Assembly: GCA_044379175.1 (NCBI GenBank)
Contig: JBIPOM010000254.1
Coordinates: forward strand, 5,851-69,850
DNA length: 64,000 nt
DNA from: Flavobacterium sp.
GTDB lineage: Bacteria > Bacteroidota > Bacteroidia > Flavobacteriales > Flavobacteriaceae
Reading direction: 5' to 3'
Of the stretch, positions 5,923 through 62,940 are shown in pieces; the stretch's first letter is position 1, and each line of letters starts with the position of its first letter. The position numbers and the translations under genes are program-made. The notes beneath the pieces were generated by a model. It did no database searches. It was not told the origin of the DNA and worked only from the letters and a program-made list of their open reading frames with translations.

Positions 5923-6255
5923 CTATCGCGTAATGTACTTAAGAGCAGAAACTAAATCATTAATTGACTCTGCAGCAGTATAATATATATTCTTTTTTGC
6001 TCTATCGTTTTTATCAACATTGGTCATCCAAGTTGCTTTAAAGGACATCTTTGCTGCAATTGCTTGCAGTCTAACAATTTCTATAGTTGCAACATTCATT
6101 GGTATATCTGGCTTAATAATAACCTTTGCAATAAATGTTAATGCTGTAGTTAATTCTTCATCTTGCATATACTCTGCTATTTCAGCAAGACCGTTAACCA
6201 TCTCTAATGTTGTTTTACTGTTTTCAGTTTCCAAGACCAAATCCTCCGTTGTCAT
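5923..6255 (-). CDS. Hypothetical protein
   Basis: 110-aa helical ORF in the minus-strand operon. Confidence 0.55.
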   Translation of the reverse strand: MTTEDLVLETENSKTTLEMVNGLAEIAEYMQDEELTTALTFIAKVIIKPDIPMNVATIEIVRLQAIAAKMSFKATWMTNVDKNDRAKKNIYYTAAESINDLVSALKYITR

Positions 6256-7635: not shown

Positions 7636-7639
7636 TTGT

Positions 7640-32100: not shown

Positions 32101-33505
32101 CAGCAACAGTTTGTGCTTGAGTGCCCTCTTTAATAACGTTTTGAAATAACGTAGATATACGTGAAAACTGAAACTTACCAAATAGTTGTTCAATTGCTCT
32201 AGCACGATTAAGTGGATCTAGTTTGTCTAATGCACTTGCTACGTCTATAACAAGTTTTTTAACATCACCTTGATTTGCATCTACAATTCCTTTTATATTA
32301 ATGCCAAAACTAGCAAGAAACTCTGATGCTCTTTTACTTGGATTAATAATAGATGCAAGACCAGACTTTAATGCGTTGGCACCTTCTCCAGCCTGAATGC
32401 CACCTTCACGCATAGCAGTCATAAAGAATGCTAAGTCTTGAACATCTCCACCAAGTTGTTTAATTACTGGTGCTGCTTTAGGAATTGCTGTTGTTAAATC
32501 ATCAATACTTAGAATTGTTTGGTTTTCTACTGCGTTTAAAAAGTCAATTTGTTGTGCAGTCTTTTCTGCAGTAATTCCAAAAGTAGAAGTTAAAGAAATT
32601 AAAGTGTCCAAAGATTTTTGTTGATCAATGCCACCAAGTACAGCAAGTTTATTTGCTTGGGCAACTTGAACTAATAAATCATTTCCAACTTTACCTGTTG
32701 CTGCCACATCGGCAGCCATTTTCATTGTATCTGCTACGGCTACACCATACTTAGTAAATTCATTTGCAAGCATTTTAACATTTTGCAATGCTTCAGTTGT
32801 TTCTTTAGTATTTGTAAACATGTCACCGTAAACACGTTTAAATCTAATTGCTTGTTCTTCTAATTCCATAAATGTTTTTGCTGCAACGGAACCAAAATAC
32901 ATTAATGGTACAGTAAAACCAACCATAAGTTGACGACCAGCCCACTGTGTATTTTTACCAAAGTTTAAGAGATTTGTAGATCCTTGTCTTAATAATTGAT
33001 TAAGTAATGCTTGGCGTTGAGCAGCCATTGCTGTTTTAGTTGCATAATCATTCATATCCAAAGTTAATGGACGAATAGACATTGCCTTGAGAGCACCACT
33101 TGCATCTCTACCCATTTTAATATATTGGGTTTGTAGTGTTTTTACATTTTCTCTTGCAACTTTATTGATAGTGTCAAACTCTGTTTTAAATAATTTACCA
33201 AAAGTTTTAGTAGAAGCACCAGCGTATCTGAAGTACTCCTTCATTCCAAATTTATTTTTTTCTAAAGCCTCATTAAAAGAATCTGTTGTTGTTTTAATCT
33301 TTTTCATTTCGGCATAGAATTTGCCGCTTGCATTAATTTGATTAGTTAAGTTTTGAGCCATGTTCTGAGAAACCGCTGCACCAGCGGCCCCAGATTTGGC
33401 CATTGTAGAATAAAAGGCTGATAACTGACGCTGTAAAAGTTTAAGTTGCCTTAACGCTTGATCAGCATCAACACCAATTTTTATATTGGATTCGATATCA
33501 GCCAT
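26114..33505 (-). CDS. Tape measure protein
   Basis: 2463 aa, Ala/Gly-rich and helical, TMP core, hydrophobic segments and GTDTVPAMLTPGEF motif; follows the tail chaperones. Confidence 0.93.
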   Translation of the reverse strand: MADIESNIKIGVDADQALRQLKLLQRQLSAFYSTMAKSGAAGAAVSQNMAQNLTNQINASGKFYAEMKKIKTTTDSFNEALEKNKFGMKEYFRYAGASTKTFGKLFKTEFDTINKVARENVKTLQTQYIKMGRDASGALKAMSIRPLTLDMNDYATKTAMAAQRQALLNQLLRQGSTNLLNFGKNTQWAGRQLMVGFTVPLMYFGSVAAKTFMELEEQAIRFKRVYGDMFTNTKETTEALQNVKMLANEFTKYGVAVADTMKMAADVAATGKVGNDLLVQVAQANKLAVLGGIDQQKSLDTLISLTSTFGITAEKTAQQIDFLNAVENQTILSIDDLTTAIPKAAPVIKQLGGDVQDLAFFMTAMREGGIQAGEGANALKSGLASIINPSKRASEFLASFGINIKGIVDANQGDVKKLVIDVASALDKLDPLNRARAIEQLFGKFQFSRISTLFQNVIKEGTQAQTVAELTTATVEELAILSERELNKISESPMYKFKKQVQDLKTVIAPIGAEFLKALTPIIEFFNKILRRFEDMSDGTKKFVVYLTTILAGIGPLALMSFGLLANGVANIIKLFVSIKSVFNRAGNSTTYLGEQTNYLTQAQINAAAVASSLDQAHMTLTQRFTAEAQAVKLLRNAYMEANAASLNFSIGKGIAKTPGMPLANGILSVPGPKGAGDVVPAMLSPGEAVIPAKQNKKFGGLIRGIIADKIPGFIKGSASIKTVNFGGTDYSNIATNAKTTESKLSEYLHRYSTGANATQETNVQLTKMLETLNQRALAEGKTQILSLKQIQQALAEFNLREINPKGTGRQSAGSVFAHGSAPRRATQEQLNIINQEGQRLISQNPEYHEKTKYSKANMLAQAESATMYNRYGFNTDHSYNTGSGDTKLFQSEFLDPAKQTKVMSPFYEEWAAQQGKTLNEVLKDPKLFKKMTLDTSSFAKAIGEEIGKIGTETFSDDQFYKAVADAEAKHFAKGSSGKLKRPRMKRVVDALKEDYSTLGLMGGEANRATGQRVGVAQRDQELRQQLGMPLSGKPYKRGGQYASISQKVRQKSIDYGFTQIGDSFSETLDARSPSKKLRKIGKDAGTGLLLGVKESVKDAKGAGRQLAMSVIQGSMQIPQSKLTTMNRGIVGPTSPYNPGGNDNNKPTTKNRGRVGVGGLAMGANALLMGGSMMPGQVGDMSQKLMMPVMALSMILPLLQSKFGLLTVGIAALTYAIVSTRMAFDKAQDSAMKLAENLGSGAKAMEELAKFSGKVSATEIMDKRRKNSLSPFQVQTGKTTFGQSFVDSDLGKQTISAVTDSMKVGGRAGAQSQLLSQLTTGVVTGSLTADQARSIAANIGEQLGDYSFGIQVNAKMLELLGPNGENLEKDPIAIRVKLMQDARQKANSATGMIGNAARYTGKDTAKFGGFGLGGLIGGGALAVGGGMASAVAGGAAAGSFVPGIGTAIGAGAGALIGGTLALRDRQKRIGAASGGAVAMQKMALEQQTAMMDSLELEYEKRIDIAKAANDLEKVARLTAEREAGRIALLEENKGLLTDIGASYSGASSMLGGNVQKAMMTGVDKAITNQYKDTAMADIVPLAQTAIGGSGATKEQQYKIKMEMASGNIDPMQIVSMFEMFKEDQGSVDALLDITANFGGKFANQAISTVSMFTNKDGSVNKTAQAKFIADIKTKTPKEAEKMLTFFGDITKTGEVLDVGVAVEYLQKNPNIANNLQETIANIKAQKGKISLEVAATILGAKEMEALRSDQEYFNSLPAEQQKVYLQTLTTMAEVTGNNSKEFLAWQAANPGQSPNKYFTGAAQQLTKAEALATPATGEDGSETGTGPTSSPLDELVKKIRDTRKATEELTTGWDSSASALKRMAKEGIEGFKGLSQTLRSQGANQNTIDFITALSPEDYNKYKSLFKDMKTLQSAINFAELGSYQDSQEKIIADTDNQTIAFNKLVAAGMDSATAYEAVQNTGFAAAVATEKLGKNMKKIVDTTTAANRKKIEGFLKMGQYSQAFDPGYNLAQRYFDVQEKLMKLRRQAEIDQQQAVIDTADIQIKSAQNIQDVNNYQISTYEDGLKTIDDQANEITKKYDKQFESLDKISKINETIARQEKGRLSLAEALSQGDIYAAARAAQELRAQNAADAIAQQRTGMESARDAQISALTGNGLTRDQLEEKIKALKEQNYRIDQDTIKPLQEQSRLAQVKLDLINQEVEAQAKNLTLAGMTKKEWETQATKIEAAQVATELYNGVLQGSLDAINKMNAGWQGILDKLGQYVGTNLPSLPDGTTTTTTTTDSGTSEKPPKGIKSPGVVSKPSTPSSVINKKFPTVTSANIMGSGSGFGIGSSSSNKIMGGGKTLAPQTWQQAVAKAVPKKWNMGGRVQRFASGGFAIGTDTVPAMLTPGEFIVSKYGVDKFGVDNLRAINKGDNPSSSSVYNYNLSVNVKSDANPNEIARTVMMQIKQIDSQRIKGNRI

Positions 33506-46688: not shown

Positions 46689-47219
46689 TCACACAATACG
46701 TGTAAACCAACGAGGTAATGTAAACCTTGTTCCCTTAATTATTGGCTTAACACCATGAACAAAATCTGGATTATCTGGAAAACATAACAAATCTCCAGGC
46801 TCTGGCTTAAAAGACATTTCATATTTTGGAAAGTAAATGTCTCCTCCTTCATAGTCATTGTTTAAATAAATTAAAGTTGCTATATCATTTGGTCTTGAAG
46901 CATCAAAATGCTCGTGCATACCTTTTCCTTCAACAAATTTTGCTATATGAGTTTTTTCATCAATAAAGTGATCAAACTTAGATTGGTAGTTATTTAAAAC
47001 AAAAGAATAAACCATTAACGCAGTTTCTTGAATTGTATCCAGTAAGTCGCTATCCAAACCTTCTATTTCATGATAGGTGTGAACGGTAAACTCTTGTTCT
47101 TCGTTACCATAGTTAGAAAATAGTTCAGAATGTTTTTTTGCATAATCTGCTACCAAACCTGCTTCTTGAGGATCCATGAATCCTTTAATGTACTTAATTT
47201 GAGACTTTAAATCTTCCAT
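46689..47219 (-). CDS. Prolyl-4-hydroxylase-like 2OG-Fe(II) oxygenase
   Basis: HFD...LIYLNNDYEGGDIYF...KPEPGDLLCFP...HGV...GTRFT. Confidence 0.88.
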   Translation of the reverse strand: MEDLKSQIKYIKGFMDPQEAGLVADYAKKHSELFSNYGNEEQEFTVHTYHEIEGLDSDLLDTIQETALMVYSFVLNNYQSKFDHFIDEKTHIAKFVEGKGMHEHFDASRPNDIATLIYLNNDYEGGDIYFPKYEMSFKPEPGDLLCFPDNPDFVHGVKPIIKGTRFTLPRWFTRIV

Positions 47220-49342: not shown

Positions 49343-49471
49343 TTAGTGAAATGACATTGCTGTATGTTGTTTTGGACTACAACGTTCACATAACGTGTAT
49401 GTGTTTTTAGTATAAGGACATGTAGTTGAACTTAATTTATGTCCAATAACAAAACAGATCAACTTATTCAC
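49343..49471 (-). CDS. Small Cys/His protein (DUF1660-like), missed by the ORF track
   Basis: Hand translation MNKLICFVIGHKLSSTTCPYTKNTYTLCERCSPKQHTAMSFH; the GTG overlaps the upstream TGA. Confidence 0.6.
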   Translation of the reverse strand: MNKLICFVIGHKLSSTTCPYTKNTYTLCERCSPKQHTAMSFH

Positions 49472-50097
49472 GGTAGCGGAACCCAGTGTTGAAGTTCGTC
49501 ACCACTCATATACATAAAAGGAGAAACGTCATAGGCAAGAGTAATTCTTGGTTTATCAAAAGGCCAAGCACCAATACCATGTGGGTGTCCAGTTTCAGAC
49601 AAGATCACTCTATTGTTTTTATTAACGTTTTCAATTGGTGTTGCATCATGTCCACCAATTTTATAGTATGTAACTGATGGTTCTGCATCTATAGAATAAT
49701 ATCCATGAAAATTAGGAGCACCAGTACCACCCAAATGATCGTGATAATGTGTATCCTCATTAAGCGGTGGCTCTGCCATTGCATCTGTATTAAACCATCC
49801 CTGAACCATGTAGTGTTGTTTTTTGTAATCAATACCATAATAATCACATGCTTCTATTGTTAATTCACGTATTGCAGAAAAAATATTATGTATTGCTGGA
49901 TTATAGCATTGAAAAACATTAAACCTTGTGCCTAAATGGTGAACTCCAGGAACAGTGGCTGCAAATTCTTTTGTTACTTTGGGATATACCCCATCAAATA
50001 AATCTTTTTCAACTCTTAAAAGATATTTTGTTAATCCTGGTAGATCGTTTTGCAAATATTTTTCAAAAAACTTATGTTGTGGTTTTTGATTCATCAT
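49468..50097 (-). CDS. Putative 2OG-Fe(II) oxygenase (HxH type)
   Basis: GWFN...HYHDH...FHGYY...HPHG...RITLAYD. Confidence 0.7.
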   Translation of the reverse strand: MMNQKPQHKFFEKYLQNDLPGLTKYLLRVEKDLFDGVYPKVTKEFAATVPGVHHLGTRFNVFQCYNPAIHNIFSAIRELTIEACDYYGIDYKKQHYMVQGWFNTDAMAEPPLNEDTHYHDHLGGTGAPNFHGYYSIDAEPSVTYYKIGGHDATPIENVNKNNRVILSETGHPHGIGAWPFDKPRITLAYDVSPFMYMSGDELQHWVPLP

Positions 50098-50759
50098 ATC
50101 AATGGAATCCAGTGTTGTTCGTGTTCTTTACCTACATGTTTTAAATCTTTTAGTGTCATAACGTCGTATGCAACGGTTATTCTTGGACCTTCCCAATCCC
50201 AATCGCCTTGAGCGTGTGGATGACCCATTTCTGAAAATATAGCACGGTTATCTATATTTTTATTTTCAATATCTTTACCAAACACTCTGTAGTAAGTTGT
50301 TGAAGGTTCTGCTTTTACACAGTAGTAACCATGAAAGTTATCTGGGGCACCTGTGTGTCCGTGATCATGCCAATTTAACTTTCCTTTTTTGGTATAATTA
50401 ATATTAAACCATCCTTGAAGCATAAACTGTTTTTTCTCAAAATCTATTTCGTAATATTCGCAAGCCTCTTTAGTCATATCTTGAATATTTTTATATAACT
50501 CATAGATACCTTCAATATGAAATTGAAATACATTATATTCTCTCCACTTTACAGTAGAAACACTGCCTGACTCTTGCCAAAAGTCTTTAGAGTTTACTGG
50601 CGTAATGCCATCTAATTCTACCTTTTCAATCATTTGATATCTATCAATTAATTCATTTGCAAGTAAATCTAAATCATTATTTAAATGTCTTTCAAAAAAC
50701 TTATGTGGTTTTGTTGATTGCTGAATACCACGTAGTTCTGGTGGTGGACCTTGTTGCAT
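50094..50759 (-). CDS. Putative 2OG-Fe(II) oxygenase (HxH type), paralogue of 49468..50097
   Basis: HKFFE...GWFN...WHDH...FHGYY...HPHA...RITVAYD...QHWIP, shared with its neighbour. Confidence 0.7.
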   Translation of the reverse strand: MQQGPPPELRGIQQSTKPHKFFERHLNNDLDLLANELIDRYQMIEKVELDGITPVNSKDFWQESGSVSTVKWREYNVFQFHIEGIYELYKNIQDMTKEACEYYEIDFEKKQFMLQGWFNINYTKKGKLNWHDHGHTGAPDNFHGYYCVKAEPSTTYYRVFGKDIENKNIDNRAIFSEMGHPHAQGDWDWEGPRITVAYDVMTLKDLKHVGKEHEQHWIPLI

Positions 50760-50801: not shown

Positions 50802-52049
50802 TTAGGTTGTAGGTAAACCTAAATAGTCTTGTGTAAGAGCATAAGAACTATAGCATAACAGGTTTCCTGCTACAACTAAGCCAAGTGGATCTCTAGAAAA
50901 CATGTATACTGTTCTAGTTTCATTAACTGTTTCAACATTTTCTACTACCATTAAAGAGTCTTTTGTTACTAAGGTATCTCCAGGTTTAATTTCTCTTGAA
51001 GGAATAAACTTATACACATTTTTTTTAACTGTAAGAATATCTTCCATAGTTGAAAATCTCATGTCTGGATTATTATTAATAATAACTGTTTCTTCTACCA
51101 CACTTGGAACTATTTCTGTGACTGTTGACTCAATATCTCTATAATTAGTAAGTCCGCCCATACCCATCCACATAATAACTTCTGCAAAATGTCCTACTGG
51201 TAATTGATCAAATGTTTTTGTTATTAAGGTGTCTCCAACTTTAATATCTTTTGCTTTTTTATTTCCAGTTTTTGTAAGAACTGGTGCATCTTCATCTATA
51301 CAGAAGTATGTTGGTGAGAAACCAAAAACTCTAAATGGTGAGAAACCAAACACTCTAAATGGGGAGAAACCAAACACGTTAAAAGGTGAGAAACCAAATA
51401 CTGAGAAAGGTGAGAAACCAAACACACCAAAAGGTACGAAAGAAAATGTAGTTGTTACTGAATTTGATAGTGCAGAAAATTCTGAGTTTCCGTTAGCATT
51501 AGTTGCCCGAACTTTGTACTGTTGTGCTGTTCCTGCTTCTTGTCCTAGTGATGCACTGGTTCCTGTTCCAGTATTTCCATTTTTACCGTCGGTTGATTCC
51601 CAGTAATAATTTGTAATTGCTGATCCACCGTTTGCTGGTGCACTCCATGAAATTACATCTTGATTAGCGTTTGGTGATGATGCACTTGGTGCTGCAGGTG
51701 TTGCAGGTACTGTTGTAACAGTTACTGAACTTGATGCTGCTGAAGCAATCGAGTTACCTGATGCATTAGTTGCAACAACTGTAAAAGTATAACTTGTATC
51801 TGATGATAATCCTGTAACCCGCAACGGAGAAGTTGCACCTGTTGCTGTAAGAGATCCAGGACTTGAAGTCACTGTAAAACCTGTTGCTGCTGGAGAATTT
51901 GCTGGTAGTGTAAATGCTACATCAACTGCACCATTATTAAAAGCCCGACCTGTACCAACGTTAGTTGCTGAAGTAATTGTTGGTTGTTGTGGTTCTAAAA
52001 AGTCATTAGCCTGTTGTGACTTTTTACCTGCTCTTTTACCTATTGCCAT
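50802..52049 (-). CDS. FN3-domain protein with (FxVFGFSP)5 repeats and a C-terminal Hint domain
   Basis: Two FN3-like repeats (VTGLSSDTSYTFTVVATN; WSAPANGGSAITNY...YKVRATN), then the repeats, then CIDEDAPVLTKTG..KAKDIKVGD (Hint block A) ... VYMF...VVAGNLLCYS. Confidence 0.8.
   Translation of the reverse strand: MAIGKRAGKKSQQANDFLEPQQPTITSATNVGTGRAFNNGAVDVAFTLPANSPAATGFTVTSSPGSLTATGATSPLRVTGLSSDTSYTFTVVATNASGNSIASAASSSVTVTTVPATPAAPSASSPNANQDVISWSAPANGGSAITNYYWESTDGKNGNTGTGTSASLGQEAGTAQQYKVRATNANGNSEFSALSNSVTTTFSFVPFGVFGFSPFSVFGFSPFNVFGFSPFRVFGFSPFRVFGFSPTYFCIDEDAPVLTKTGNKKAKDIKVGDTLITKTFDQLPVGHFAEVIMWMGMGGLTNYRDIESTVTEIVPSVVEETVIINNNPDMRFSTMEDILTVKKNVYKFIPSREIKPGDTLVTKDSLMVVENVETVNETRTVYMFSRDPLGLVVAGNLLCYSSYALTQDYLGLPTT
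51312..51431 (-). repeat. Five 24-nt tandem repeats encoding FxVFGFSP (x=G,S,N,R,R)
   Basis: Read directly; synonymous codon variation between units. Confidence 0.95.
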
Positions 52050-52080
52050 GTTCTCTCCCTAGTCTTATTATATCAAACCG

Positions 52081-53913
52081 TTAGGCACTTAAATCGCCGT
52101 ATACGACCCAGGTGTTAGTTGCTCTCTTAAACAGAGTGCATGATGACCACCGTGTGCGTAATTTAAGACCTGGTGTAGCATCTACTGTTACCCCTGCGTC
52201 TCCTGCAATTGTTACTTGACCTACACCAGTTTGAAGAATATCAATTGATGTTCCAACTGGGAAGGCTACTGCTGAGTTAAGAGGAATAGTTAGTGTTGTT
52301 GCATAAGCATTGTTCATTTCTATCAAGTTGTCTCTTTCAGCCAATGCTGACAAAGTATAACTTTCTGTTTTTTGAACAATAGGTGTCCGTGAAGGTACAC
52401 CTTCTAATCTTTGTGTACCGTCTGCAAATACGATTCCGTTTGCAGTGATATCTGATGTTGCAGTGATTGAGTTTGCCTCAAGTGTCAAAAGTGCCAAGAC
52501 ATCTAGTGAACCTTGTCCAAAGTTAACTGTTGTTCCAGGTTCTGATGTAACACCATCAAACAATTTCCATTTGCTATCTGTAACGTCTTTGACGATACCA
52601 GCATGTTTTTGTGTTCCATCATTATAAGAAACCACCAAACCTAGATCTGTTACGTTGTTAGCATTTGTGTGACCAAGTTGTAGTAAAGTATCTTCGATTT
52701 GAATTTGTGTTGCAGATACAAGAACGTTAGATCCACTTACAGTGAAATCTCCGTCTACTGTTAAATTACCAGTTGTTGAAACGTTACCAGTAAAGGCTGC
52801 TCCTGAAAGGGATGCTAGATTTCCTAGTGTTGTTACAAGGTTTGTGATTTTATCTTGATTGATTGTTCCTGATATAGAGTTATTTGTAACAGAGTTATCA
52901 AGTGGTGTTCTTGCATCAGAAAGTCTTGCATCATCTGTAAGAACTACTGCCAAGGTATTTGTGATACCGTGTACGTTTGATGTATCAGATTCATGATTTT
53001 CTAACTGTGTGAGAGTAACTAGTGTTGCTGTATTTGATATACCGTGCACATTTAATGTTTCTAGATTATGATCTGAAATTGCATTATCTGTGTATTCTTC
53101 TAAATCTGTAATTGCGTTTGCTATTGTGTTTCCTAATATAAACGATTCTGCTTCAATTGCTGTATCTCTATCTAATATTTCTTGATCTACTAAACCATTT
53201 GCATAATCTTCTGCTGCTGATTGAGCATTTCCAATTTCATATTGTAAAGATTGAACTGCGTTTGCAAGATTATTTGCAGTATTGTTTGCTAATAATTCTA
53301 TTTGTTCTGTAACGTCTGCTGATAAATTGCTTATGCTGTTATCTGTATATTCGTTAGCAGCATCTAAAGCGTTATTTATGTTATTGGCAACGGTGAAGAA
53401 ATAAGTTTGATCATCATTAATTGCATTAGCAATTTCTTGTAAAGTATTTAATGCTTCTGGTGCTGTTCCTACAAGGGTTGCAATTGCGTTTGAAATTGAG
53501 TTACTTACATCTGAAGATCTAGCAATGCTGTTTGAAATTTGTGTTAAAGGAATTAAGTTGCTTCCGTCAAGTGTAGCAACACCGTTTGCTGCACCTTTTT
53601 GTGTTAATGCAACGTAATCTGCAGTTCTAGCAATACCACTAGGTATCTGTGCTGTAGGTATTAAATTGCTTCCATCTAATGTGGCAACACCGTTTGCTGC
53701 ACCTTTTTGTTCTAATAAAATGTAATCGTCTAGGTTTCCGCCTAGATCTTCTATATTTTTAAAGTATGGCAAATCATCCCATGCTGTAGAGTTGTCACCT
53801 ATTTTAAATTGTCCTGTGTCGGTTTCAAAACCAATTTCTCCAGAACCCAGAGTAGGGTTAGCGTTAGCCCACTGTGTAGCAGTTCCTCTACGTTGTAGCA
53901 TCCTTGTTGCCAT
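52081..53913 (-). CDS. Tail fibre / virion protein (Mtd-N-like N-terminus)
   Basis: QRRGTATQW..NPTLGSGEIGFETDTGQFKIGD; duplicated QKGAANGVATLDGSNLIP; APEALNTLQEIA; C-terminal FPVGTSIDILQ...WVVYGDL. Confidence 0.75.
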   Translation of the reverse strand: MATRMLQRRGTATQWANANPTLGSGEIGFETDTGQFKIGDNSTAWDDLPYFKNIEDLGGNLDDYILLEQKGAANGVATLDGSNLIPTAQIPSGIARTADYVALTQKGAANGVATLDGSNLIPLTQISNSIARSSDVSNSISNAIATLVGTAPEALNTLQEIANAINDDQTYFFTVANNINNALDAANEYTDNSISNLSADVTEQIELLANNTANNLANAVQSLQYEIGNAQSAAEDYANGLVDQEILDRDTAIEAESFILGNTIANAITDLEEYTDNAISDHNLETLNVHGISNTATLVTLTQLENHESDTSNVHGITNTLAVVLTDDARLSDARTPLDNSVTNNSISGTINQDKITNLVTTLGNLASLSGAAFTGNVSTTGNLTVDGDFTVSGSNVLVSATQIQIEDTLLQLGHTNANNVTDLGLVVSYNDGTQKHAGIVKDVTDSKWKLFDGVTSEPGTTVNFGQGSLDVLALLTLEANSITATSDITANGIVFADGTQRLEGVPSRTPIVQKTESYTLSALAERDNLIEMNNAYATTLTIPLNSAVAFPVGTSIDILQTGVGQVTIAGDAGVTVDATPGLKLRTRWSSCTLFKRATNTWVVYGDLSA

Positions 53914-53983
53914 TGTATCTCCCTGTGTAGGTCTTACCTACTTTTGATTTTGTTTTAATTATAACAGTTTTTTTTAAAATGTT

Positions 53984-54436
53984 TTAATTAAATTCACTGT
54001 CTGGATTTCCACCATCAAATACTGCTGCCCATGAATTTGAAAATGGTGTTCCACCACTTAATGTAGAAATTTGTGGATCATCATATTGTTCAGCATCCCA
54101 GAATACTGTAACAATTCTTCCGTTACCATCAATTGCTGTATCATGAATGTGATCTGGAATATTTTGTACATCATTGCTTGTTGCAATTGTAAACCAGTCA
54201 GTTTCATAATAAACTTTTAATCTTTCTACTGTGGTATCAAACCACATATCCCCATTGTCTGGGGAAAGAGGGGCAGTATTTGATACTGGTGTACCAGTTA
54301 CAGAATCTACGTAATCTTTAGTAGTAGCGTGAGTTCCTAATGTAGGTTCTCCTACTGCTACCGCGTTTCCAAATGAACCGCCGTTAGTTACGACTAATCC
54401 ATTCTTGACTTTAAAATCTTTTAGACTTGTAGTCAT
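53984..54436 (-). CDS. Virion structural protein
   Basis: KDFKVKNGLVV, HATTKDYVD and GDMWFDT fibre-type motifs. Confidence 0.6.
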   Translation of the reverse strand: MTTSLKDFKVKNGLVVTNGGSFGNAVAVGEPTLGTHATTKDYVDSVTGTPVSNTAPLSPDNGDMWFDTTVERLKVYYETDWFTIATSNDVQNIPDHIHDTAIDGNGRIVTVFWDAEQYDDPQISTLSGGTPFSNSWAAVFDGGNPDSEFN

Positions 54437-54458
54437 TTACTGCCCCCTAATTTTTTTA

Positions 54459-55991
54459 CTAGACTAACAATGTACCAACAACTGTTACATCTGAGTTGTT
54501 ATTGGCTGTTGCTACTCTTAGTCTTACATCTGTTCCGTTTACGTCTGCAGAAATTGTGGATGCGGATCCGTTTGTTCCTACAATTGCGTATTCTGTGATT
54601 GCGATGTTGTTTGAAGTATCAAGAGTTAAGATAACTTTTGAAACTTCTGTGTGTGCACCGTAAGCAACTTTTACCAAGAATTCGGCTGAGCGATATTCTG
54701 CTAATGCCCAGTCAATTGCTGTAACTGTGCTTGCTGTTGGAGCATTTACTGTTGCTGCAACTTGTCTAGCAACTGTGTTAATATCAATTTCAGTGAAATT
54801 AGGTATTACTGCTTCAAGAGCATCTACTGCACGTTGATCTGTGAAGTAAAGGTTTGTTGAACCTTCAACCAAAGCATCTGTGTTAGAATCTCCTACACCA
54901 TTTTCTGCTGTAATTACCAATCCAGATGAGTTACCTGTGATTGAGATATTTGTTAGAGTTGCCATTGTTAACAAACTTGCTGCTGACTCTTTAGCCCTTG
55001 TATCTGTGAAGTATTCGTTTGTTCCTTCTTCGATATCAGTTGTTGACAAAAGATTAATTGCATTGTCTGTGTAAGAATTTGCATTTGCTAAAGCATTTCC
55101 TGCTGCAAAATCTGCATAGTCTTCTAGGTCTGCATATGCATTTCCTATTTCTAGATCAATATAAGTAACTGCATTTGAATAAGCAGTATCTGCTGATCCT
55201 GAAACATCATAACTTCCAGTAAAGTTAATTGTGTTTCCTGTAATCTCAATGTCAGTTCCTGCAATCAAAGCATTTTGTTTTTCTGCAACTAAGTTGGTTA
55301 TTGTTCCAACAAAGTTTGCATCGTCACCAATTGCTTCTGCGATTTCGTTAAGTGTATCTAATAACGCTGGTGCATTGTTTGTTAAATCAGCAATTGCATT
55401 ACCTACTGCAAAGTCTGCATAATCTTCTAAGTCAGCCACTGCATTGCCTACTGCAAAGTCAGTGTATTCTTCTAAGTCAGAGACTGCATTAGAAATTGCG
55501 TTGTCAGTGTATGAGTTTGCATTTGCTAAAGCATTTCCTGCTGCAAAATCTGCATAGTCTTCTAAGTCAGCAATTGCATTACCTACTTCTAGGTCTGTGT
55601 AAGCAGTTGCATTTGAATAAGCATTTGCTGCTGAGCCTATAGCATCATAGGATGCTGCAGTTGCATCTGTTGCTCTTTGGTTTGTAAAGTAAAGGTTTGT
55701 TGTACCTTCTGCTACATCATCAGAATCATGATTAGAAATGTCTGATACTTGACCAGTTACATCTCCAACTAAGTCTGCTGTGATTGTATTTGCAAGAAAG
55801 TTTGCATTTGCATCACGAAGTACTAGTGTGTTTGCTACTGCGTTTGATGAAGCGTCTCCACCAACCAGGTCTATAATGTAGTTTTGATCATCTGTACTTT
55901 TTGTCAAGATGTCAAAGTTGTTAATTGTACCTGTTGTTCCTTCAACGACTAAACCATGTTTAATCTTGAAATTTTTTGTTACTGTTGCCAT
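54459..55991 (-). CDS. Tail-fibre-like protein with internal repeats
   Basis: Repeated EGTTNLYFT motif; LEDYADFAAGNALANANSYTDNAI occurs twice; LDTLNEIAEAIGDD. Confidence 0.7.
   Translation of the reverse strand: MATVTKNFKIKHGLVVEGTTGTINNFDILTKSTDDQNYIIDLVGGDASSNAVANTLVLRDANANFLANTITADLVGDVTGQVSDISNHDSDDVAEGTTNLYFTNQRATDATAASYDAIGSAANAYSNATAYTDLEVGNAIADLEDYADFAAGNALANANSYTDNAISNAVSDLEEYTDFAVGNAVADLEDYADFAVGNAIADLTNNAPALLDTLNEIAEAIGDDANFVGTITNLVAEKQNALIAGTDIEITGNTINFTGSYDVSGSADTAYSNAVTYIDLEIGNAYADLEDYADFAAGNALANANSYTDNAINLLSTTDIEEGTNEYFTDTRAKESAASLLTMATLTNISITGNSSGLVITAENGVGDSNTDALVEGSTNLYFTDQRAVDALEAVIPNFTEIDINTVARQVAATVNAPTASTVTAIDWALAEYRSAEFLVKVAYGAHTEVSKVILTLDTSNNIAITEYAIVGTNGSASTISADVNGTDVRLRVATANNNSDVTVVGTLLV
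55081..55565. repeat. Internal direct repeat (~46 nt near-identical at ~55081 and ~55519) within the fibre gene
   Basis: gcatttgctaaagcatttcctgctgcaaaatctgcatagtcttcta occurs twice, with shorter degenerate copies between. Confidence 0.8.
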
Positions 55992-56002
55992 TTTTTATCT
56001 CC

Positions 56003-56449
56003 TTATGCCTTAAGTCCCATGCGTGCGTAACGCACAGTGACTGGCTTTATTACTGGGTCTGGAGTGATTGTTAAAGCCACTGTATTTCCAGCCCTTGAGA
56101 CGCTTATGGTTCCAATATTCCCATCGTTGTCTATTGTCCCATATTCGGAAACGGAACTATCTTCCGTGTCATTTAATATGGTCAATTCTGTTGCGTAGAA
56201 GAGGTTATCTCCTGCTGTTGTTTTAGAGATGGAAATGATATACTTAACCATTCTCCATTCTGTTGCATTATGACTATCTAATATTGTAGTGTTTTCAATT
56301 TCAGAAATAGTGTTGTCGTTATTACCGAAGGTGCCAAGGCGTGTTGCTTGGGACGCGGTAGTGTCAATTAAATCTTCATAGTCTTGCTGAGATGGCCTAT
56401 CGCCAGTCTCATAACGTGATTTTACTGTTGAAATTGATTGTTGTGCCAT
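56003..56449 (-). CDS. Virion structural protein
   Basis: ETGDRPSQQDYEDLIDT; C-terminal domain (WRMVKY...SEYG) resembles the C-terminus of 54459..55991. Confidence 0.6.
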   Translation of the reverse strand: MAQQSISTVKSRYETGDRPSQQDYEDLIDTTASQATRLGTFGNNDNTISEIENTTILDSHNATEWRMVKYIISISKTTAGDNLFYATELTILNDTEDSSVSEYGTIDNDGNIGTISVSRAGNTVALTITPDPVIKPVTVRYARMGLKA

Positions 56450-56487
56450 GCCTAAATTATAACATTATTTTTATAACTTTTTATAAA

Positions 56488-57219
56488 TTAAACGAATATG
56501 TAGGTTCCTACGTGCACTACTTTAACATGTGGTGCTACATACACAGAACCACCAAGTTTACGCCATAGTGTACAGAAGTAGTAGTCTTCTGACAAAAGTC
56601 TTTCTTCTTCTGGGTCTACCTGTGTTTTCCAAAAATCATAAATGTATTCACCTTTTTTAATACCACCCAAATCTAGTTGATCACTTTTATATTTTCCAAC
56701 ATGCTCTTTCATTGTTTCAAAAACATTACGTTTAATTAACAGCAAACCAGTTCCTATGTTTTTTACCTCTAATGGTTTTTTAGGATTATCTGCTACCTTA
56801 TGCAAGTCTTGTCTATCAACAAAGTTTATGTTTACATAAGATCCAAACCTTTTTAAATCAGGTTTTTTTAATTCTGCTGCTTTTTCTACGTTAGCCCAGT
56901 TAATTGCTTTCATTGGCACGGCAGCCCCAATAATATCTAAATCTGTATCAATCATATCTATAACACCATCAGCGTTAAAACCTTCGTCACCATCAATAAA
57001 CAATAGGTAGTCAGCATCAGATCTTAAGAATAGTTCTGTAAGGGTGTTTCTGGCTCTGTTAATTAAAGATTCGTTGTACAAGTCGTTAAAGGTTACTTTG
57101 TATCCTTTGTAGGTTAGTTTCATTACTAGTCCCATAATACTTTTCATAAAGTATCCATGACAAACCCCACCGTACATTGGGGTTGCTATAAATATGCTAG
57201 GTTTTTCTTTTTTAGCCAT
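56488..57219 (-). CDS. Glycosyltransferase (GT-A fold)
   Basis: IATPMYGG, ESLINRARN, LLFIDGD (DxD), GTGLLLIKR, LSEDYYFC..WR..GG and HVG. Confidence 0.8.
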   Translation of the reverse strand: MAKKEKPSIFIATPMYGGVCHGYFMKSIMGLVMKLTYKGYKVTFNDLYNESLINRARNTLTELFLRSDADYLLFIDGDEGFNADGVIDMIDTDLDIIGAAVPMKAINWANVEKAAELKKPDLKRFGSYVNINFVDRQDLHKVADNPKKPLEVKNIGTGLLLIKRNVFETMKEHVGKYKSDQLDLGGIKKGEYIYDFWKTQVDPEEERLLSEDYYFCTLWRKLGGSVYVAPHVKVVHVGTYIFV

Positions 57220-57228
57220 ATGTCTATT

Positions 57229-57453
57229 CTACAGTATATAGTTGCTATAGCCAATAACCTGTAAAGGAATTGGGGGCACATTACCTGGACCATACCCTTC
57301 TACTGTTATTGTTGTAAATCTTATTCTAAAAGGTAAGGTGTAATTTATTTCTACCGTGCTAGGTTTGTAGGATATTTTGGTTTGGTAATAGTCTGAGGTT
57401 TCAATACGTCTTAATTTTTGTTTATTGTCATCAACAATAATTGCTGTTGCCAT
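57229..57453 (-). CDS. Hypothetical virion-associated protein
   Basis: 74-aa coupled ORF. Confidence 0.5.
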   Translation of the reverse strand: MATAIIVDDNKQKLRRIETSDYYQTKISYKPSTVEINYTLPFRIRFTTITVEGYGPGNVPPIPLQVIGYSNYIL

Positions 57454-57860
57454 TAGTCAGTTACATCTTCAAGGATAATTAGACTGCCTTGTGCAACTGT
57501 CCAAACAATTTCTGATGTAGATAACTCGATATCAAAAATATCTCCTGTTTGAAGATTGTGTGATTCTTCTGCTGCAAGTTTAACTGTAAACTCTCCAGCC
57601 AAATCATCTGCATCTGCTGCTGGAGTCAAAAGCATAACTGTATTTGCATTATCTGTAATAACTCCAAGATCTTTAGCAAGGTTTGGTCTTTTAATTTTCA
57701 TAGCAATGTTCCAATCTGCTATAACTAAAGGGGACTGTTCATCGTCTGTCACATAAACTTTAAATGCTGAGGTGTCACCACGAACTACTGTCCATTTAAC
57801 GGTTGGGGGTTTAGCACCTACGTTGTATAAATCTTGAGATGAGTTTCTGAGAATGGCCAT
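57453..57860 (-). CDS. BppU-like (baseplate upper N-terminal-like) protein
   Basis: VRGDT...FDIEL...TVAQGSL..EDVT. Confidence 0.55.
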   Translation of the reverse strand: MAILRNSSQDLYNVGAKPPTVKWTVVRGDTSAFKVYVTDDEQSPLVIADWNIAMKIKRPNLAKDLGVITDNANTVMLLTPAADADDLAGEFTVKLAAEESHNLQTGDIFDIELSTSEIVWTVAQGSLIILEDVTD

Positions 57861-57890
57861 ATTGTAATTATATCATGTTTGGATAAATAA

Positions 57891-58418
57891 TTATGAAAGA
57901 CCGTTCTTTAATGCTCCCCAAGTACCGTTACCTTTGGCGGTAACTACAAGAACTCCATTAGATGCATCTGCGTAAGCACAAACTGCTACAGCACCTGCAC
58001 CACCTACTGGTCTAACGTTTGTTAATCCTCCACCAGTCTTTACGTATAAAATATCACCTGCAACAAATTCAGATGTATTAACATCTGGTAATACTCCAGA
58101 GACTACACATATTCCTTGTGCATTATTTGCTGTTGTAGATTTTAATAATCCTAATATTGGTGATGTTGTTGTAGGAATTGCTTTTCCTACTGTTGTTAAA
58201 TCTTGTCCTGAATTATGACCATTAATAAATACAGGAGATCCTGCTGCAATTGATGCTCCAGATGTATTAATTACATCTAATTTCATGTAAGATAAGCCAA
58301 GTCCAGCGAGTGTATTATCTAGTGAAGTTGCTAAAGATTGAATATCTCCATGTACGTTTACGCTATCATCAACTTGTGGGTATGGTAAGTTATATATGCT
58401 TGATTGACCTGTTGCCAT
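57891..58418 (-). CDS. Virion structural protein
   Basis: YNLPYP...DIQSLA; GDILYV..GGLTNVRP; decoration/fibre-like. Confidence 0.55.
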   Translation of the reverse strand: MATGQSSIYNLPYPQVDDSVNVHGDIQSLATSLDNTLAGLGLSYMKLDVINTSGASIAAGSPVFINGHNSGQDLTTVGKAIPTTTSPILGLLKSTTANNAQGICVVSGVLPDVNTSEFVAGDILYVKTGGGLTNVRPVGGAGAVAVCAYADASNGVLVVTAKGNGTWGALKNGLS

Positions 58419-58479
58419 ACAAATATTATATCATTTTAAATAATTTTTTGTATTATCTTACTAATATGACATTTTTGAT

Positions 58480-58508
58480 TTGACTTGCTGGCAAATAGAT
58501 GTTATACT
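58480..58508 (+). promoter_or_regulatory. Consensus sigma70/SigA promoter for the transglycosylase
   Basis: TTGACT, 17-nt spacer, TATACT with TGn extension. Confidence 0.75.
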
Positions 58509-58556
58509 TGATATATGACACCTACCAAGGGTGTCATGTTTTCTTAGGAGAGAACT

Positions 58557-59132
58557 ATGAAAAAAGATAAAAAATTTTTAATAGGATTGCTCGCAAGTCT
58601 TGGATTGTCTTCAGTATTCTTGAATATTTCTAATGCTCAAGGTGTTGAAACTAACCTGAAAAACGATAAATATGCAACATTTACCGCTGAGGCGGTTTTT
58701 TTGCTTTCTAGGCCAGATCATCTAGATAAACCATCTAGAGACAATGTAAGAATTCTTGCTGAATATCAGGATAAAGGACAACTTACTGATATTGAACTAA
58801 AAACTTTGCTGTCTGCTTGTGGTTTTGAAAATAAACACCTGGTAGAGGCTTGGGCTATTGCTAAAAAAGAATCAATGGGCAACGCCTTGGCTTTTAACGG
58901 CAACAGAAGCACTGGAGACAAATCATACGGACTATTTCAAATAAATATGATTGGTGACCTTAATGCTGATAGAAAAGAAAAATATAACTTAGACTACACT
59001 AGTCAACTTTTAAACCCATCAATTAACTGTCAAGTTGCTTATATTATGAGTGATGGTGGAAATAATTGGGGACCTTGGAAAGGCATAACTTCAAAAACTA
59101 GAGAATTTATGTATCAGTTTCCTAAAGATTAA
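58557..59132 (+). CDS. Secreted lytic transglycosylase (SLT/lysozyme-like)
   Basis: Signal peptide MKKDKKFLIGLLASLGL...SNA; AWAIAKKES (catalytic Glu), SYGLFQIN, LLNPSIN and WGPW; AGGAG RBS. Confidence 0.85.
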   Translation: MKKDKKFLIGLLASLGLSSVFLNISNAQGVETNLKNDKYATFTAEAVFLLSRPDHLDKPSRDNVRILAEYQDKGQLTDIELKTLLSACGFENKHLVEAWAIAKKESMGNALAFNGNRSTGDKSYGLFQINMIGDLNADRKEKYNLDYTSQLLNPSINCQVAYIMSDGGNNWGPWKGITSKTREFMYQFPKD

Positions 59133-60025
59133 TCTACTGGATAAGCATTATATACAAGTAAAGAATCTGCTACAATCAAGCCAAATGGTTCTCTCATAAA
59201 ATCATAAACTTTTCTATCTTCTTTGACTATTTCTATAGAGCGAACTTGATATAAAGGTCCATCAATCAATGACTCTTCTGGATTTTTTACTATTAAATCT
59301 CCAGATTTTAATTGTGAAGAAATAACAAACATTAGTTTATTTTCTCTAACAACAAGAATATCTTCTTGTGTAGAAAATCTCTTATACTTGTCTCCATTAA
59401 CTAAAACTGTATCAGATACTTCACTTTCTTTTATATTATTTACCACAGACTCTACTGTAGTGTATTCTTTATTATTTTCAGATGACCATAGTCTTAAACC
59501 ATCATGATTTGTTATTGGAATATCTTTAAATGTTTTAGTTATTAAAATATCTCCAACAACTATGTCTTTGGCTAATGCATATCCCTCTTTAGTTAAAACT
59601 GGTGTTTCTTGATCTATACAAAGACCACCAAAATAGGTTGGTGAAAATCCAAATACTCTAAATGGTGAAAAACCAAATACGTTAAAGGGGGAAAACCCAA
59701 ATACGTTAAAAGGAGAAAATCCAAATACTTGAAATGGAGAAAATCCAAACACCCCAAATGGTGTAAATGTAAATTGTCTAACTGTTAAATCAACTGGGGT
59801 TTCATAGTCTGCTGGTGTTGTTACTGCAGGAGTTTGTCCAACAACTTTTCCATCATTTGCAAGTTCTGTTGGTTCTCCAGAAACTGAAGTAATTACGTTT
59901 CCTAAAGTAAATCCTTCTGATACAACATCTGTTTGGGCTTGTGCACTTGTTCTTCCAATAAAATTAGGAAGTAGTTTCATTCCTTTTGCTACAACGTATT
60001 TAACTAGTTTTCCAAATAATGCCAT
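59129..60025 (-). CDS. PASTA-like protein with (FxVFGFSP)5 repeats and a C-terminal Hint domain
   Basis: LPNFIGRTSAQA...GFTLG...VVGQTP...VDLTV (PASTA-like); repeats; CIDQETPVLTKEG..AKDIVVGD ... VYDF...IVADSLLVYN. Confidence 0.8.
   Translation of the reverse strand: MALFGKLVKYVVAKGMKLLPNFIGRTSAQAQTDVVSEGFTLGNVITSVSGEPTELANDGKVVGQTPAVTTPADYETPVDLTVRQFTFTPFGVFGFSPFQVFGFSPFNVFGFSPFNVFGFSPFRVFGFSPTYFGGLCIDQETPVLTKEGYALAKDIVVGDILITKTFKDIPITNHDGLRLWSSENNKEYTTVESVVNNIKESEVSDTVLVNGDKYKRFSTQEDILVVRENKLMFVISSQLKSGDLIVKNPEESLIDGPLYQVRSIEIVKEDRKVYDFMREPFGLIVADSLLVYNAYPVD
59639..59758 (-). repeat. Five 24-nt tandem repeats encoding FxVFGFSP (x=G,Q,N,N,R)
   Basis: Read directly; same peptide as 51312..51431 but with different codons. 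Confidence 0.95.
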
Positions 60026-60034
60026 AGCAAACCC

Positions 60035-60685
60035 CTATGCGATCAAGTCGCCGACTAGAAGCCAGGTATTTGTATCAAACTTAAACAAGGATGCACCTGA
60101 GTACCTTGCTGCAATTGCTTTATTTGTATTTTTACTATTTAAAGTAACTCCTGCACCTGCAACAAATGTAACAGATCCAGTGTTCATTCTAAAAACATCT
60201 ATTTCTGATCCTATTGGAAAGGCAATACTTGAATTGGGTGGAATAGTTACTGTCCATGCTCCTGTGGAATCAAAAGTTATACTTTGACCAATATCATTTA
60301 ATGTTAAATCATAATTTTGTGTTCCGCTACCAGCCTGTTTATTAAAGGTAACTAAACCACCGTAAGATATCCAATTTGTTCCGTTGTAAAATTGTAAATC
60401 ATTAATTGCTACGGCACCAGAGGTTTGTCTAACAAAACAAACTGTTCCTCTTACTGGTGAGGTTAATGCTGCATCTCTTGCTGCAGGATTTAAAAAGTTA
60501 TTTACTCCAGCCTTAGCAGTAATTACTGCATTAGTATCTGAAAATGTAACATTGTTTTGAAATTCTTGTGTTCCAGACCAAACATAATTTGCGGCAGTGT
60601 TTGTGTTTGCACCAATTGCATAAAAAGTATCTGTACCTTGATCATATACGTATGCTGTTTTACCAGTAGTATTTAATGATGGCAT
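60035..60685 (-). CDS. Virion structural protein
   Basis: C-terminal FPIGSEIDV...WLLVGDL domain is homologous to the C-terminus of 52081..53913. Confidence 0.65.
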   Translation of the reverse strand: MPSLNTTGKTAYVYDQGTDTFYAIGANTNTAANYVWSGTQEFQNNVTFSDTNAVITAKAGVNNFLNPAARDAALTSPVRGTVCFVRQTSGAVAINDLQFYNGTNWISYGGLVTFNKQAGSGTQNYDLTLNDIGQSITFDSTGAWTVTIPPNSSIAFPIGSEIDVFRMNTGSVTFVAGAGVTLNSKNTNKAIAARYSGASLFKFDTNTWLLVGDLIA

Positions 60686-60783
60686 TATGCACCAATCCCT
60701 ATTGCTTTAAGTTCTTCTTCTGTTAAACCTAATGCAACTAGTTTTGCAATTGCTATTTCTTTTAAAATTATGTTATCAGTCAT
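60685..60783 (-). CDS. 32-aa protein missed by the ORF track
   Basis: MTDNIILKEIAIAKLVALGLTEEELKAIGIGA; TAATG-coupled at both ends. Confidence 0.6.
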   Translation of the reverse strand: MTDNIILKEIAIAKLVALGLTEEELKAIGIGA

Positions 60784-61229
60784 TATTCACCTATTGTATC
60801 CCAATCAGAAGTTGCTGAATTATAAATTTTCATTTCAAGTGGACTAGATCCTTTTACAACCCAAAGAGTTCCATCTGTTGGTGTTGCTGGTTCTATTGCT
60901 GTGTAAATTGCTGTTGGGTTTACTGGTGTAGTTCCTGGTGTTGAGTCAATATCTAACCAAAGTAAACCTTCTGCAAGAGCATTTGCATCTGGTTGTGTGG
61001 ACTGAACAACTGAACCTGTTCCTAAATTTTGTAATACAGTTATTGAGTTTTGAATATTTTGTAAATGATAGGCAATTGATGGGTTAACTAGTGCTGCTGT
61101 ATTGGCATTTGTTTCGTCATATGTGCTTGAGCCGTAATGGTATGTTCTTAGGGCAGACTGAATATCTGCGGCATCTTCATAACCTGGAACTTTAGTGGAA
61201 TATATATTTCCTATGCTAACATCAGCCAT
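60783..61229 (-). CDS. Virion structural protein
   Basis: GLLWLD and GTLWV fibre-type motifs. Confidence 0.55.
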   Translation of the reverse strand: MADVSIGNIYSTKVPGYEDAADIQSALRTYHYGSSTYDETNANTAALVNPSIAYHLQNIQNSITVLQNLGTGSVVQSTQPDANALAEGLLWLDIDSTPGTTPVNPTAIYTAIEPATPTDGTLWVVKGSSPLEMKIYNSATSDWDTIGE

Positions 61230-62211: not shown

Positions 62212-62940
62212 CTATGAAACTGATACATATATTTTTTTTAGTATTAGGTTTGTTAAATGATCTGATTTTGCATATGGTCTGCAGAAGTTAAACCACATTT
62301 CTTTATTTTCTATGTGTATTGTTTGGTCAACTGTTAGGTCAAAGATTCCTTGGTATTTAAATGATCCAACCATTGTTAGAACTGATTTGTCAATTTCAGG
62401 GTATACGGTAGCAAACCAAAATTCAGTATTGTTAACAAAGGTTTCAAGTGAAAAGTTATAGGTAAGTCTAACAGTTGATCCTATTTCTAAACTTCTAAAT
62501 GTTAGTACTCTGGATTGTTCGTTGTAAAGGGTGTTGCAGTTTAATGGTAGGAATGATTGGTTTTTTGATATGCCTTTTTTGTCAATGTATAAATCGTGCC
62601 ATCCGTTTTCACCTCTAGATGGGTCTATGCTAAAAATTTTAGAAGATGTATCTTCGTAACTGGCCCAACCTGGTTGTTGTTTGTAAACTGGAAAATAACT
62701 TTCTCCATTTTTACCGTTTATACCATTCTTGCCATTTTTTCCATCTGCTCCAGCATCACCTTTGTCACCTTTGTCACCTTTAGGACCTTGTATTCCTTGT
62801 GGACCCATTGCACCTTGAGGTCCTGGTACACCTTGAGGTCCTGGGACTGGTAAAAATTGTAGTTGTGGGGCTTCCTGATCAACTGCATTAATTTTTTGTT
62901 TTTCTTGTATAGGAAAACCCATGCTGCGTGAAATGGCCAT
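62212..62940 (-). CDS. Collagen-like (Gly-X-Y) repeat protein
   Basis: GPQGVPGPQGAMGPQGIQGPKGDKGDKGDAGADGKNGKNG. Confidence 0.8.
   Translation of the reverse strand: MAISRSMGFPIQEKQKINAVDQEAPQLQFLPVPGPQGVPGPQGAMGPQGIQGPKGDKGDKGDAGADGKNGKNGINGKNGESYFPVYKQQPGWASYEDTSSKIFSIDPSRGENGWHDLYIDKKGISKNQSFLPLNCNTLYNEQSRVLTFRSLEIGSTVRLTYNFSLETFVNNTEFWFATVYPEIDKSVLTMVGSFKYQGIFDLTVDQTIHIENKEMWFNFCRPYAKSDHLTNLILKKIYVSVS

Follow-up and report, generated by a model that had tools for sequence, protein, structure and literature searches.

Hint domains are known from inteins, from Hedgehog proteins, from bacterial intein-like domains (BILs) and from toxin release. In Hedgehog, a thioester at the first cysteine of the domain (Cys1) releases and modifies the N-terminal functional part, and the tailspikes and fibres of phages possess a C-terminal module, the intramolecular chaperone of the Peptidase_S74 type, which removes itself after assembly. 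Type A BILs are defined by Cys1 and a terminal His-Asn with no downstream nucleophile, and mostly perform cleavage (PMC4031507); BIL2 of the Tetrahymena BUBL locus forms an isopeptide bond from a lysine side chain to the C-terminus of the upstream domain (PMC8616854). We analysed a stretch of 64,000 nucleotides from a Flavobacterium sp. assembly (GCA_044379175.1, contig JBIPOM010000254.1, positions 5,851 to 69,850; hereafter the window, in whose coordinates positions are given), and describe two of its genes, A and B, which encode different N-terminal domains followed by the same aromatic and proline-rich array of FxVFGFSP octapeptides and by a C-terminal Hint domain. The same arrangement is found again on hundreds of contigs of uncultured aquatic phages. 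In the literature searched we found no account of fibre-module proteins of phages in which an aromatic/Pro array is followed by a C-terminal BIL domain, nor of Hint as a standard C-terminal module of phage fibre-associated proteins.

The open reading frames (ORFs) of A and B confirmed the unrelated N-termini and common C-terminal architecture reported in the initial annotation: the two proteins could be aligned from a lead-in before the array onward only, with 54% identity, and in both of them Cys1 is followed by about 160 residues to the stop (Table 1). The FN3 domains of A are preceded by the N-terminal motif K-R-x-G-x-K-S-..-N-D-F-L, common to the 43 FN3-type homologues that were recognised by it. 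The PASTA domain of B was found by Pfam at 5.2e-05, barely past the cut-off, and PF03793 is precomputed on many homologues of B. Tandem Repeats Finder (TRF) reported 24-nt arrays at 51313-51435 and 59639-59768, each with 83% matches. An antisense ORF on the plus strand (51229..51606), with G-E-K-P-N-T-L repeats, reads array A in mirror image and was rejected as a gene.

Pfam run directly on A and B reported no Hint domain. A profile of 43 C-terminal domains compared with the PDB matched the C. thermocellum BIL 2lwy (E 4.3e-10) and also Mja KlbA, Pho RadA and other inteins, and a per-member Pfam scan returned Intein_splicing for 36 and PT-HINT for 12 of the 43. The AlphaFold model of B, built with 74 sequences, exhibited a predicted local distance difference test score (pLDDT) of about 95 for the PASTA domain and about 96 for the C-terminal domain. 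The top 50 Foldseek matches of this model were Hint domains only, led by 6tmm (BIL2 of Tetrahymena BUBL), 2lwy, inteins and the Hedgehog HhC (1at0), with template modelling (TM) scores by target of 0.64-0.78. By profile and by model, the C-terminal domain of A and B has a Hint fold of the bacterial intein-like kind, which bears out the fold that had been proposed. The family counts no fewer than 365 close homologues, and 94 representatives of it were obtained by an exhaustive search with the last 166 residues of A and clustering at 50%; all are metagenomic. In essentially all the representatives the domain lies at the extreme C-terminus, with 0-20 residues after it, and A and B end 5-16 residues beyond the last Hint strand.

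The type A BILs (Amitai 2003; Dassa 2004; 2lwy) share with the phage domains the Hint fold, Cys1 and the lack of a nucleophile after the domain; the terminal His-Asn is present in most of the phage family, and a type A BIL gave the best profile match and the second-best fold match. The phage domain differs in that it ends its protein, occurs in fibre-module proteins and stands behind aromatic/Pro repeats, and in A and B the His is missing both from block B and from the terminal His-Asn, in A the Asn as well. The Tetrahymena BUBL BIL2 (6tmm, 6y75) is the top Foldseek match and the main phage family keeps a Lys after His-Asn; that domain is, however, eukaryotic, zinc-regulated and flanked by ubiquitin-like domains, whereas the phage proteins have no ubiquitin-like fold and the A/B clade has no Lys tail. 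The Hedgehog C-terminal autoprocessing domain (1at0, TM by target 0.68) is likewise a C-terminal Hint, but a sterol-recognition region follows it; since A and B end with the Hint module, they show no sign of a lipid-transfer part. Unlike a canonical intein, the phage domain is not inserted within a host protein and has no Cys/Ser/Thr C-extein, being C-terminal in all 94 representatives, and unlike PT-HINT of polymorphic toxins it is followed by no toxin domain, the 12 matches of 43 being to a related profile only. The Peptidase_S74 type is similar in function only, with an unrelated fold and chemistry, and Pfam gave no match to it.

Cys1 is kept in 178 of 180 family members, all the close homologues listed included, and its persistence in an otherwise fast-evolving domain argues that it is still in use. 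Block B, which aligns to T-F-D-H of 2lwy, reads [ST]-x-x- followed by H in 26, Q in 35 and E in 31 of 95 representatives. The last strand carries His-Asn in 64 of the 95, usually followed by x-Lys or Lys. No Cys, Ser or Thr nucleophile stands directly after the domain: B has Ala after its Asn, and the wider family mostly x-K or K. Judged by these motifs, the wider family fits the type A BIL definition, with A and B as putative divergent members failing two motifs. Because close relatives of A and B have Tyr-Gly or Tyr-His at the last strand, a C-terminal Asn cyclisation cannot be conserved in this clade. Thioester formation at X-Cys1, the N-terminal step, is the only reaction left that would be plausible. 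Friedel et al. 2019, cited in PMC8616854, reportedly found that the sequence flanking an intein can compensate for a missing block-B His. In an FN3-repeat-Hint homologue (L065:9995-11281) the Cys1 position is apparently occupied by another residue (..T-P-K-S-V-G-A-E-T-I-I..), and this Hint is possibly dead. One subclade (P0128, P0135, P0138, P0149, P0154, P0155 and P0173) has, behind the Hint, a conserved extension 12-20 residues long, H-N-x-K-..-F-Q-G-P-T-x-x-D, which could be a small C-extein, spliced on or released.

Among 120 close homologues, the array comprises 3-7 copies of the octapeptide, with five copies in 81, and is separated from Cys1 by a spacer of 1-12 residues; the count of exactly five given in the initial annotation holds for A and B but is not a fixed feature. 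The variable residue is specific to the unit (G in unit one, N in unit three, R in the last), and synonymous codon differences are found within and between the two arrays. When B was compared with 11 orthologues from metagenomic contigs by the Nei-Gojobori method, the repeats exhibited a nonsynonymous rate (dN) of 0.01-0.036 in most comparisons and a synonymous rate (dS) of 0.44-0.71, with a dN/dS of 0.02-0.06, compared to about 0.2 for the PASTA domain and 0.23-0.6 for the Hint. The repeats are the most constrained portion of the protein and the Hint is the fastest-evolving one; free drift of the repeats was not seen. Between A and B, the 48 codons of the lead-in, repeats and TYF differ at a proportion of 0.72 of the synonymous sites (pS) and 0.063 of the nonsynonymous sites (pN), compared to a pS of 0.50 and a pN of 0.40 for the Hint domains, and in the paralogues of L003, 39 of the 40 residues before Cys1 are identical at a pS of 0.62. 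Because synonymous sites are saturated while the protein is nearly identical, the array is kept alike in A and B by purifying selection, in agreement with the selection on the peptide that had been proposed. Recent gene conversion as the cause of the shared array is excluded by the same saturation.

A triple beta-helix of the T4 gp5 kind, suggested by its V-x-G-x5 octad, was rejected as a general answer for the array, because relatives mix 5- and 8-residue units in a single array, other clades have 4-, 5- or 7-residue units, and the array is unstructured in the monomer model. A complex prediction with three copies of B residues 76-140 gave a score of 0.02, which is no answer and is neutral on self-association. 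In other clades the repeats before Cys1 are FGFTP, FSFTP or YSFTP pentads, FFPP/YFPP units or PGFFAPP heptads, and further sequences at this place are Ile/Pro units and plain PT, PA or poly-Pro linkers; aromatic/Pro units are also placed between other domains in P0140 and P0187. Since the type varies by clade and the units also occur between other domains, the general property is that of a hydrophobic, Pro-punctuated spacer, with a different version fixed in each clade. Where a locus carries two Hint genes, the paralogues had one and the same type of repeat (17 of 17 loci), even at a Hint identity of 37-47%, and the last residues before Cys1 were also alike in most of these loci, the window and L011 being exceptions. 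From this match within all 17 contigs, the repeat peptide appears to have a genome-specific reader; candidates are a protein partner, an enzyme that modifies the peptide and the need for a particular mature C-terminus.

On balance, and with moderate confidence, we read A and B as fibre-associated proteins with a self-removing C-terminal BIL-like module. They would be accessory proteins of the tail-fibre module, made of three parts: a surface-type globular carrier (two FN3 domains or one PASTA domain), the aromatic/Pro octapeptide array and the terminal BIL-like Hint. Cys1 would form a thioester with the residue before it (F249-C250 in A, L135-C136 in B), and the Hint would cut itself off the carrier, whose mature form would end in the aromatic array and a junction peptide particular to the lineage (..SPTYF or ..TYFGGL). 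These two elements together would act in docking or adhesion, and the FN3-type array might also be a substrate of the adjoining 2-oxoglutarate (2OG) oxygenases; either role would account for the same repeat type in both paralogues of every genome. If the domain cuts or ligates, it would represent a new maturation or covalent attachment step for phage fibres. Fast-cutting or non-canonical (His-less) Hint variants could be of interest to protein engineers.

Several observations weigh against a self-removing module. Block B is S-x-x-E and not T-x-x-H in A and B, and its His is kept in only 26 of the 95 representatives; at the last strand, His-Asn is replaced by Tyr-Asn in B, by Tyr-Ser in A and by the pairs cited above in their close relatives. 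Because SxxE stands for TxxH and YN or YS for HN, cleavage by the Hint of A and B is something that we infer, and the domain may be slow or inactive in this clade. The placement of A and B in the virion derives from gene neighbourhood and gene fusions, and in the monomer model of B the array has no defined structure (pLDDT about 40). The Hint is replaceable: 20 of the 43 FN3-type homologues end with it and 23 are without it.

These Hint-less homologues stop 8-30 residues beyond the array. Thirteen of the 43 carry, in place of the Hint, a Cys-rich tail of about 22 residues with 4-8 Cys, and 10 of the 43 end a few residues past the array, some of them cut by contig ends. Such endings fit a mature Hint protein ending just past the array, and they fit equally an interchangeable tip or a dispensable passenger. 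In four of the relatives (L053:10001-10978, L058:10001-10930, L037:9962-10825 and L028:1688-2548) the gene encodes two FN3 domains, FFPP or PGFFAPP units and a C-x-C-..-Y-C-W-x-C-type tail, and is still followed by prolyl 4-hydroxylase (P4H)-like arrays; the fibre gene preceding the FN3-type gene in L039 has a similar ending, with a Pro-rich linker and a Cys-rich tail. In the A/B clade the Hint may no longer cut and be a stable C-terminal knob, as a binding or structural tip, on an aromatic stalk. The substitutions in this clade (SxxE for TxxH, and YN, YS, YG or YH for HN), the swapping of the Hint for other C-terminal modules such as the Cys-rich tail and the L065 lineage apparently without Cys1 are in line with a knob. 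We nevertheless find it unlikely, as Cys1 persists in 178 of 180 members while the rest of the Hint evolves fastest (omega up to 0.6), and a purely structural Cys at residue 1 would hardly be expected to last in a fast-drifting domain.

Cys1 chemistry may also end in ligation instead of release, the thioester being captured by an amine or hydroxyl of a virion protein, of the partner fibre or of a host-envelope component, so that the carrier would become covalently attached by way of its aromatic tail, much as BIL2 of Tetrahymena does for ubiquitin-like domains. An isopeptide-forming domain, BIL2 of the BUBL1 locus, is indeed the closest structural match, the main family keeps a Lys one or two residues past HN, and in most genomes the paralogues agree in the junction residues that precede Cys1; but the A/B clade is without the HN-x-K tail, no acceptor was identified, and type A BILs give mostly cleavage products (PMC4031507), which makes this outcome rather improbable for A and B. 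We give similarly little credence to a two-step version, in which the array would be tailored by the phage oxygenases and the C-terminus of the carrier then joined to the partner fibre or host envelope, as an enzyme-free covalent anchor or 'harpoon'; the repeat and junction peptide would then be a genome-specific recognition element common to both paralogues.

The Hint may instead be a nearly neutral self-removing passenger, intein-like without a homing endonuclease, with the biology residing in the carrier and repeat. Its patchy occurrence (20 of 43 FN3-type homologues with and 23 without) and its place as the fastest-evolving and most mosaic part, exemplified by L014-L018 with a dN of 0.06 for PASTA and 0.65 for Hint, would suit a passenger, as would the constant position at the extreme C-terminus, from which the domain could excise itself precisely without damage to the host protein. 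Neither a homing endonuclease nor any other function in mobility was seen, however; in all the genomes examined, two unrelated carriers bear the domain in the same place, and it persists throughout the 94 representatives at 50% identity. This retention suggests a retained function and leaves a passenger improbable. A precursor in the strict sense of ribosomally synthesised and post-translationally modified peptides (RiPPs), with octapeptides as cores that would be tailored, excised and released, is very hard to credit in spite of the tandem near-identical units, their strong purifying selection and the tailoring-type oxygenases adjoining the FN3-type gene, for the array is flanked by a folded surface domain and the Hint in fibre-module proteins of 300-1000 aa, has no cleavage motifs between units, is replaced at the same place by 4-, 5- or 7-residue units or PT/PA linkers in other clades, and has units doubling as spacers between other domains (P0140, P0187, P0137, P0189). 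Among the annotated neighbours no RiPP enzyme, protease or exporter was seen, only 2OG oxygenases, though no scan aimed at RiPP enzymes was made of the whole window; with neither leader/core logic nor a RiPP enzyme seen the label 'RiPP-like' of the initial annotation was dropped.

Table 1. Features of the A and B loci, in window coordinates.
Feature	Coordinates	Strand	Evidence or remark
Gene A, 415 aa: two FN3, five FxVFGFSP, C-terminal Hint	50802..52049	-	ORF; Pfam fn3 1.2e-08; family profile and homology to B for Hint
A, FN3-like pair	51450..52007	-	Pfam fn3 and PKD_6
A, lead-in FSFVP	51432-51446	-	
A, array of five FxVFGFSP, x = G,S,N,R,R	51312..51431	-	Sequence and TRF
A, spacer TYF	51303-51311	-	
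A, Cys1 = Cys250, codon	51300-51302	-	
A, Hint (BIL-like) from Cys250; block B S-x-x-E; end ..CYSS.. without terminal Asn	50805..51302	-	
Gene B, 298 aa: PASTA, five FxVFGFSP, C-terminal Hint	59129..60025	-	ORF; Pfam; AlphaFold2 (AF2) model; Foldseek
B, PASTA-like domain	59780..59971	-	Pfam; model pLDDT ~95, residues 20-88
B, lead-in FTFTP	59759-59773	-	
B, array of five FxVFGFSP, x = G,Q,N,N,R	59639..59758	-	Sequence and TRF
B, spacer TYFGGL	59621-59638	-	
B, Cys1 = Cys136, codon	59618-59620	-	
B, Hint (BIL-like) from Cys136; block B S-x-x-E; end ..VYNAYPVD	59132..59620	-	pLDDT ~96; Foldseek
Tail-fibre-like gene directly upstream of A	52081..53913	-	Mtd_N at N-terminus, Pfam 5.9e-12; PHROG tail-fibre families
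Fibre-like gene directly upstream of B	60035..60685	-	PHROG minor tail / virion structural families
C-terminal domain shared by the two fibre-like genes	~52084-52368 in 52081..53913; ~60038-60322 in 60035..60685	-	
Small protein; N-terminal segment corresponds to N-terminus of fused P0135	60783..61229	-	63% identity over 51 residues, E 5e-20
Paralogous 2OG-Fe(II)-oxygenase-fold genes directly downstream of A	50094..50759 and 49468..50097	-	Atlas; AF2
P4H-like oxygenase (PF13640)	46689..47219	-	Pfam 2.2e-10

The C-terminal domain common to the two fibre-like genes upstream of A and B covers about 96 residues with 41% identity (E 4e-17) and is grouped by PHROGs with minor-tail and virion-structural families. 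The order of a fibre gene followed by a repeat-Hint gene is kept in the close relatives L003 and L004 and in the distant L021, L022 and L033; in L033, the gene before a PASTA-repeat-Hint gene encodes a collagen-like fibre that has this C-terminal domain. In P0135, homologues of 60783..61229 and 60035..60685 (the latter with 36% identity, E 2e-21) stand in a single chain with the repeat-Hint cassette and with linkers bearing Cys-rich modules, and P0187 exhibits a similar fused layout. The duplicated two-gene module that the initial annotation had suggested is thus conserved in divergent relatives and fused in P0135 and P0187. Relatives of a 175-aa protein encoded at 57891-58418 carry a weak Pfam match to Phage_cement_2, a head decoration family, because of which part of this 'fibre' block may encode capsid decoration.

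The first two genes downstream of A gave no Pfam match, and their Atlas features score 0.96 to PF13759 clusters. The AF2 model of the downstream oxygenase (pLDDT 73) matched 3bvc, 2rg4, PHD2 and a bacterial P4H with E values of 3e-06 to 1e-04, and by this model the two genes have the double-stranded beta-helix fold of 2OG oxygenases. In PBCV-1, the protein A085R is a viral prolyl 4-hydroxylase with proline-rich repeat substrates, according to the account of Eriksson 1999 given in PMC7019647. The likeness consists in P4H-type gene arrays beside Pro-rich repeat genes in relatives of the window phage; PBCV-1 is, however, a eukaryotic giant virus whose enzyme has no known in vivo substrate, and in the phages the substrate link is one of synteny only, and the window neighbours of A are PF13759-like, not PF13640.

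With clusters formed at 70% identity, a 2OG oxygenase was the first, second or third gene downstream in 10-11 of 14 FN3/fibre-type clusters, and the adjacency to the FN3-type gene was found in at least three different genome arrangements. The P4H-like gene at 46689..47219 is homologous to the oxygenase arrays after the FN3-type genes of relatives (phmmer against L022, L005 and L025, 1e-13 to 1e-19). Up to eight PF13640 genes, interleaved with a conserved DUF6065-like gene pair, follow directly after the FN3-repeat-Hint gene in L022 (11256-16682) and L033 (11220-16900), and L022 has also an Asp_Arg_Hydrox (Asp/Asn-hydroxylase-family) gene and a sulfotransferase-like gene; a single PF13640 gene is found at that position in L005 and L025, in two other genome arrangements. 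Because Hint-less FN3-repeat genes retain the oxygenase arrays, it is the repeat-bearing gene, not the Hint, with which the oxygenases are linked. Repeat type and oxygenase type shift together between clades, which may merely track phylogeny.

That the oxygenases actually modify the array is possible but doubtful. None of nine PASTA-type clusters has an oxygenase neighbour, so that the oxygenase link which the initial annotation had drawn for both genes stands by synteny for the FN3-type gene but not for the PASTA-type one. The synteny comes from related phages that are not fully independent, in genomes that are oxygenase-rich, and the collagen-like protein encoded at 62212..62940 is an alternative and more conventional P4H substrate. 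Many 2OG oxygenases of aquatic phages are orphans, and the prolyl-hydroxylase-like arrays beside the repeats would supply a substrate on which they can be tested. For five consecutive ORFs at 6224-9534, earlier taken for paralogous 2OG oxygenases, Pfam found nothing at E <= 0.05. In P0126, a metagenomic protein of 283 aa, the N-terminal half is like 50094..50759 and the C-terminal half comprises an FN3 end, repeats and a Hint; this chimeric protein may have arisen by recombination or be an artefact of assembly.

Neither megablast nor tblastn, run with the cassette region and with B, found a match among 50,697 phage records, with no cultured phage carrying the cassette, and a scan of GTDB genome contigs using B found no relative; the relatives described here come from IMG/VR and ENA metagenome contigs. 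The phage contig measures 74 kb, within a bin of 2.57 Mb with 32% GC, and is identified as phage by its terminase, portal, protease and tail genes. The DNA polymerase (10979-14251) is DnaE-like, with 55% identity to Streptomyces phage enzymes of the BillNye group, and the 2463-aa ORF at 26114-33505 is probably the tape measure. We read the phage, with its DnaE-type polymerase and tape-measure-sized gene, as uncultured and siphovirus-like. A search for WhiB as a pointer to the host gave a single match in the bin, on a contig other than the phage contig. The region of 47-64 kb on the minus strand forms a single structural-gene block, in which the fibre gene 54459..55991 contains a 45-nt tandem repeat of about 2.5 copies at 55383-55512, coding for A-D-L-E-D-Y-A-D-F-A-x-G-N-A-type units.

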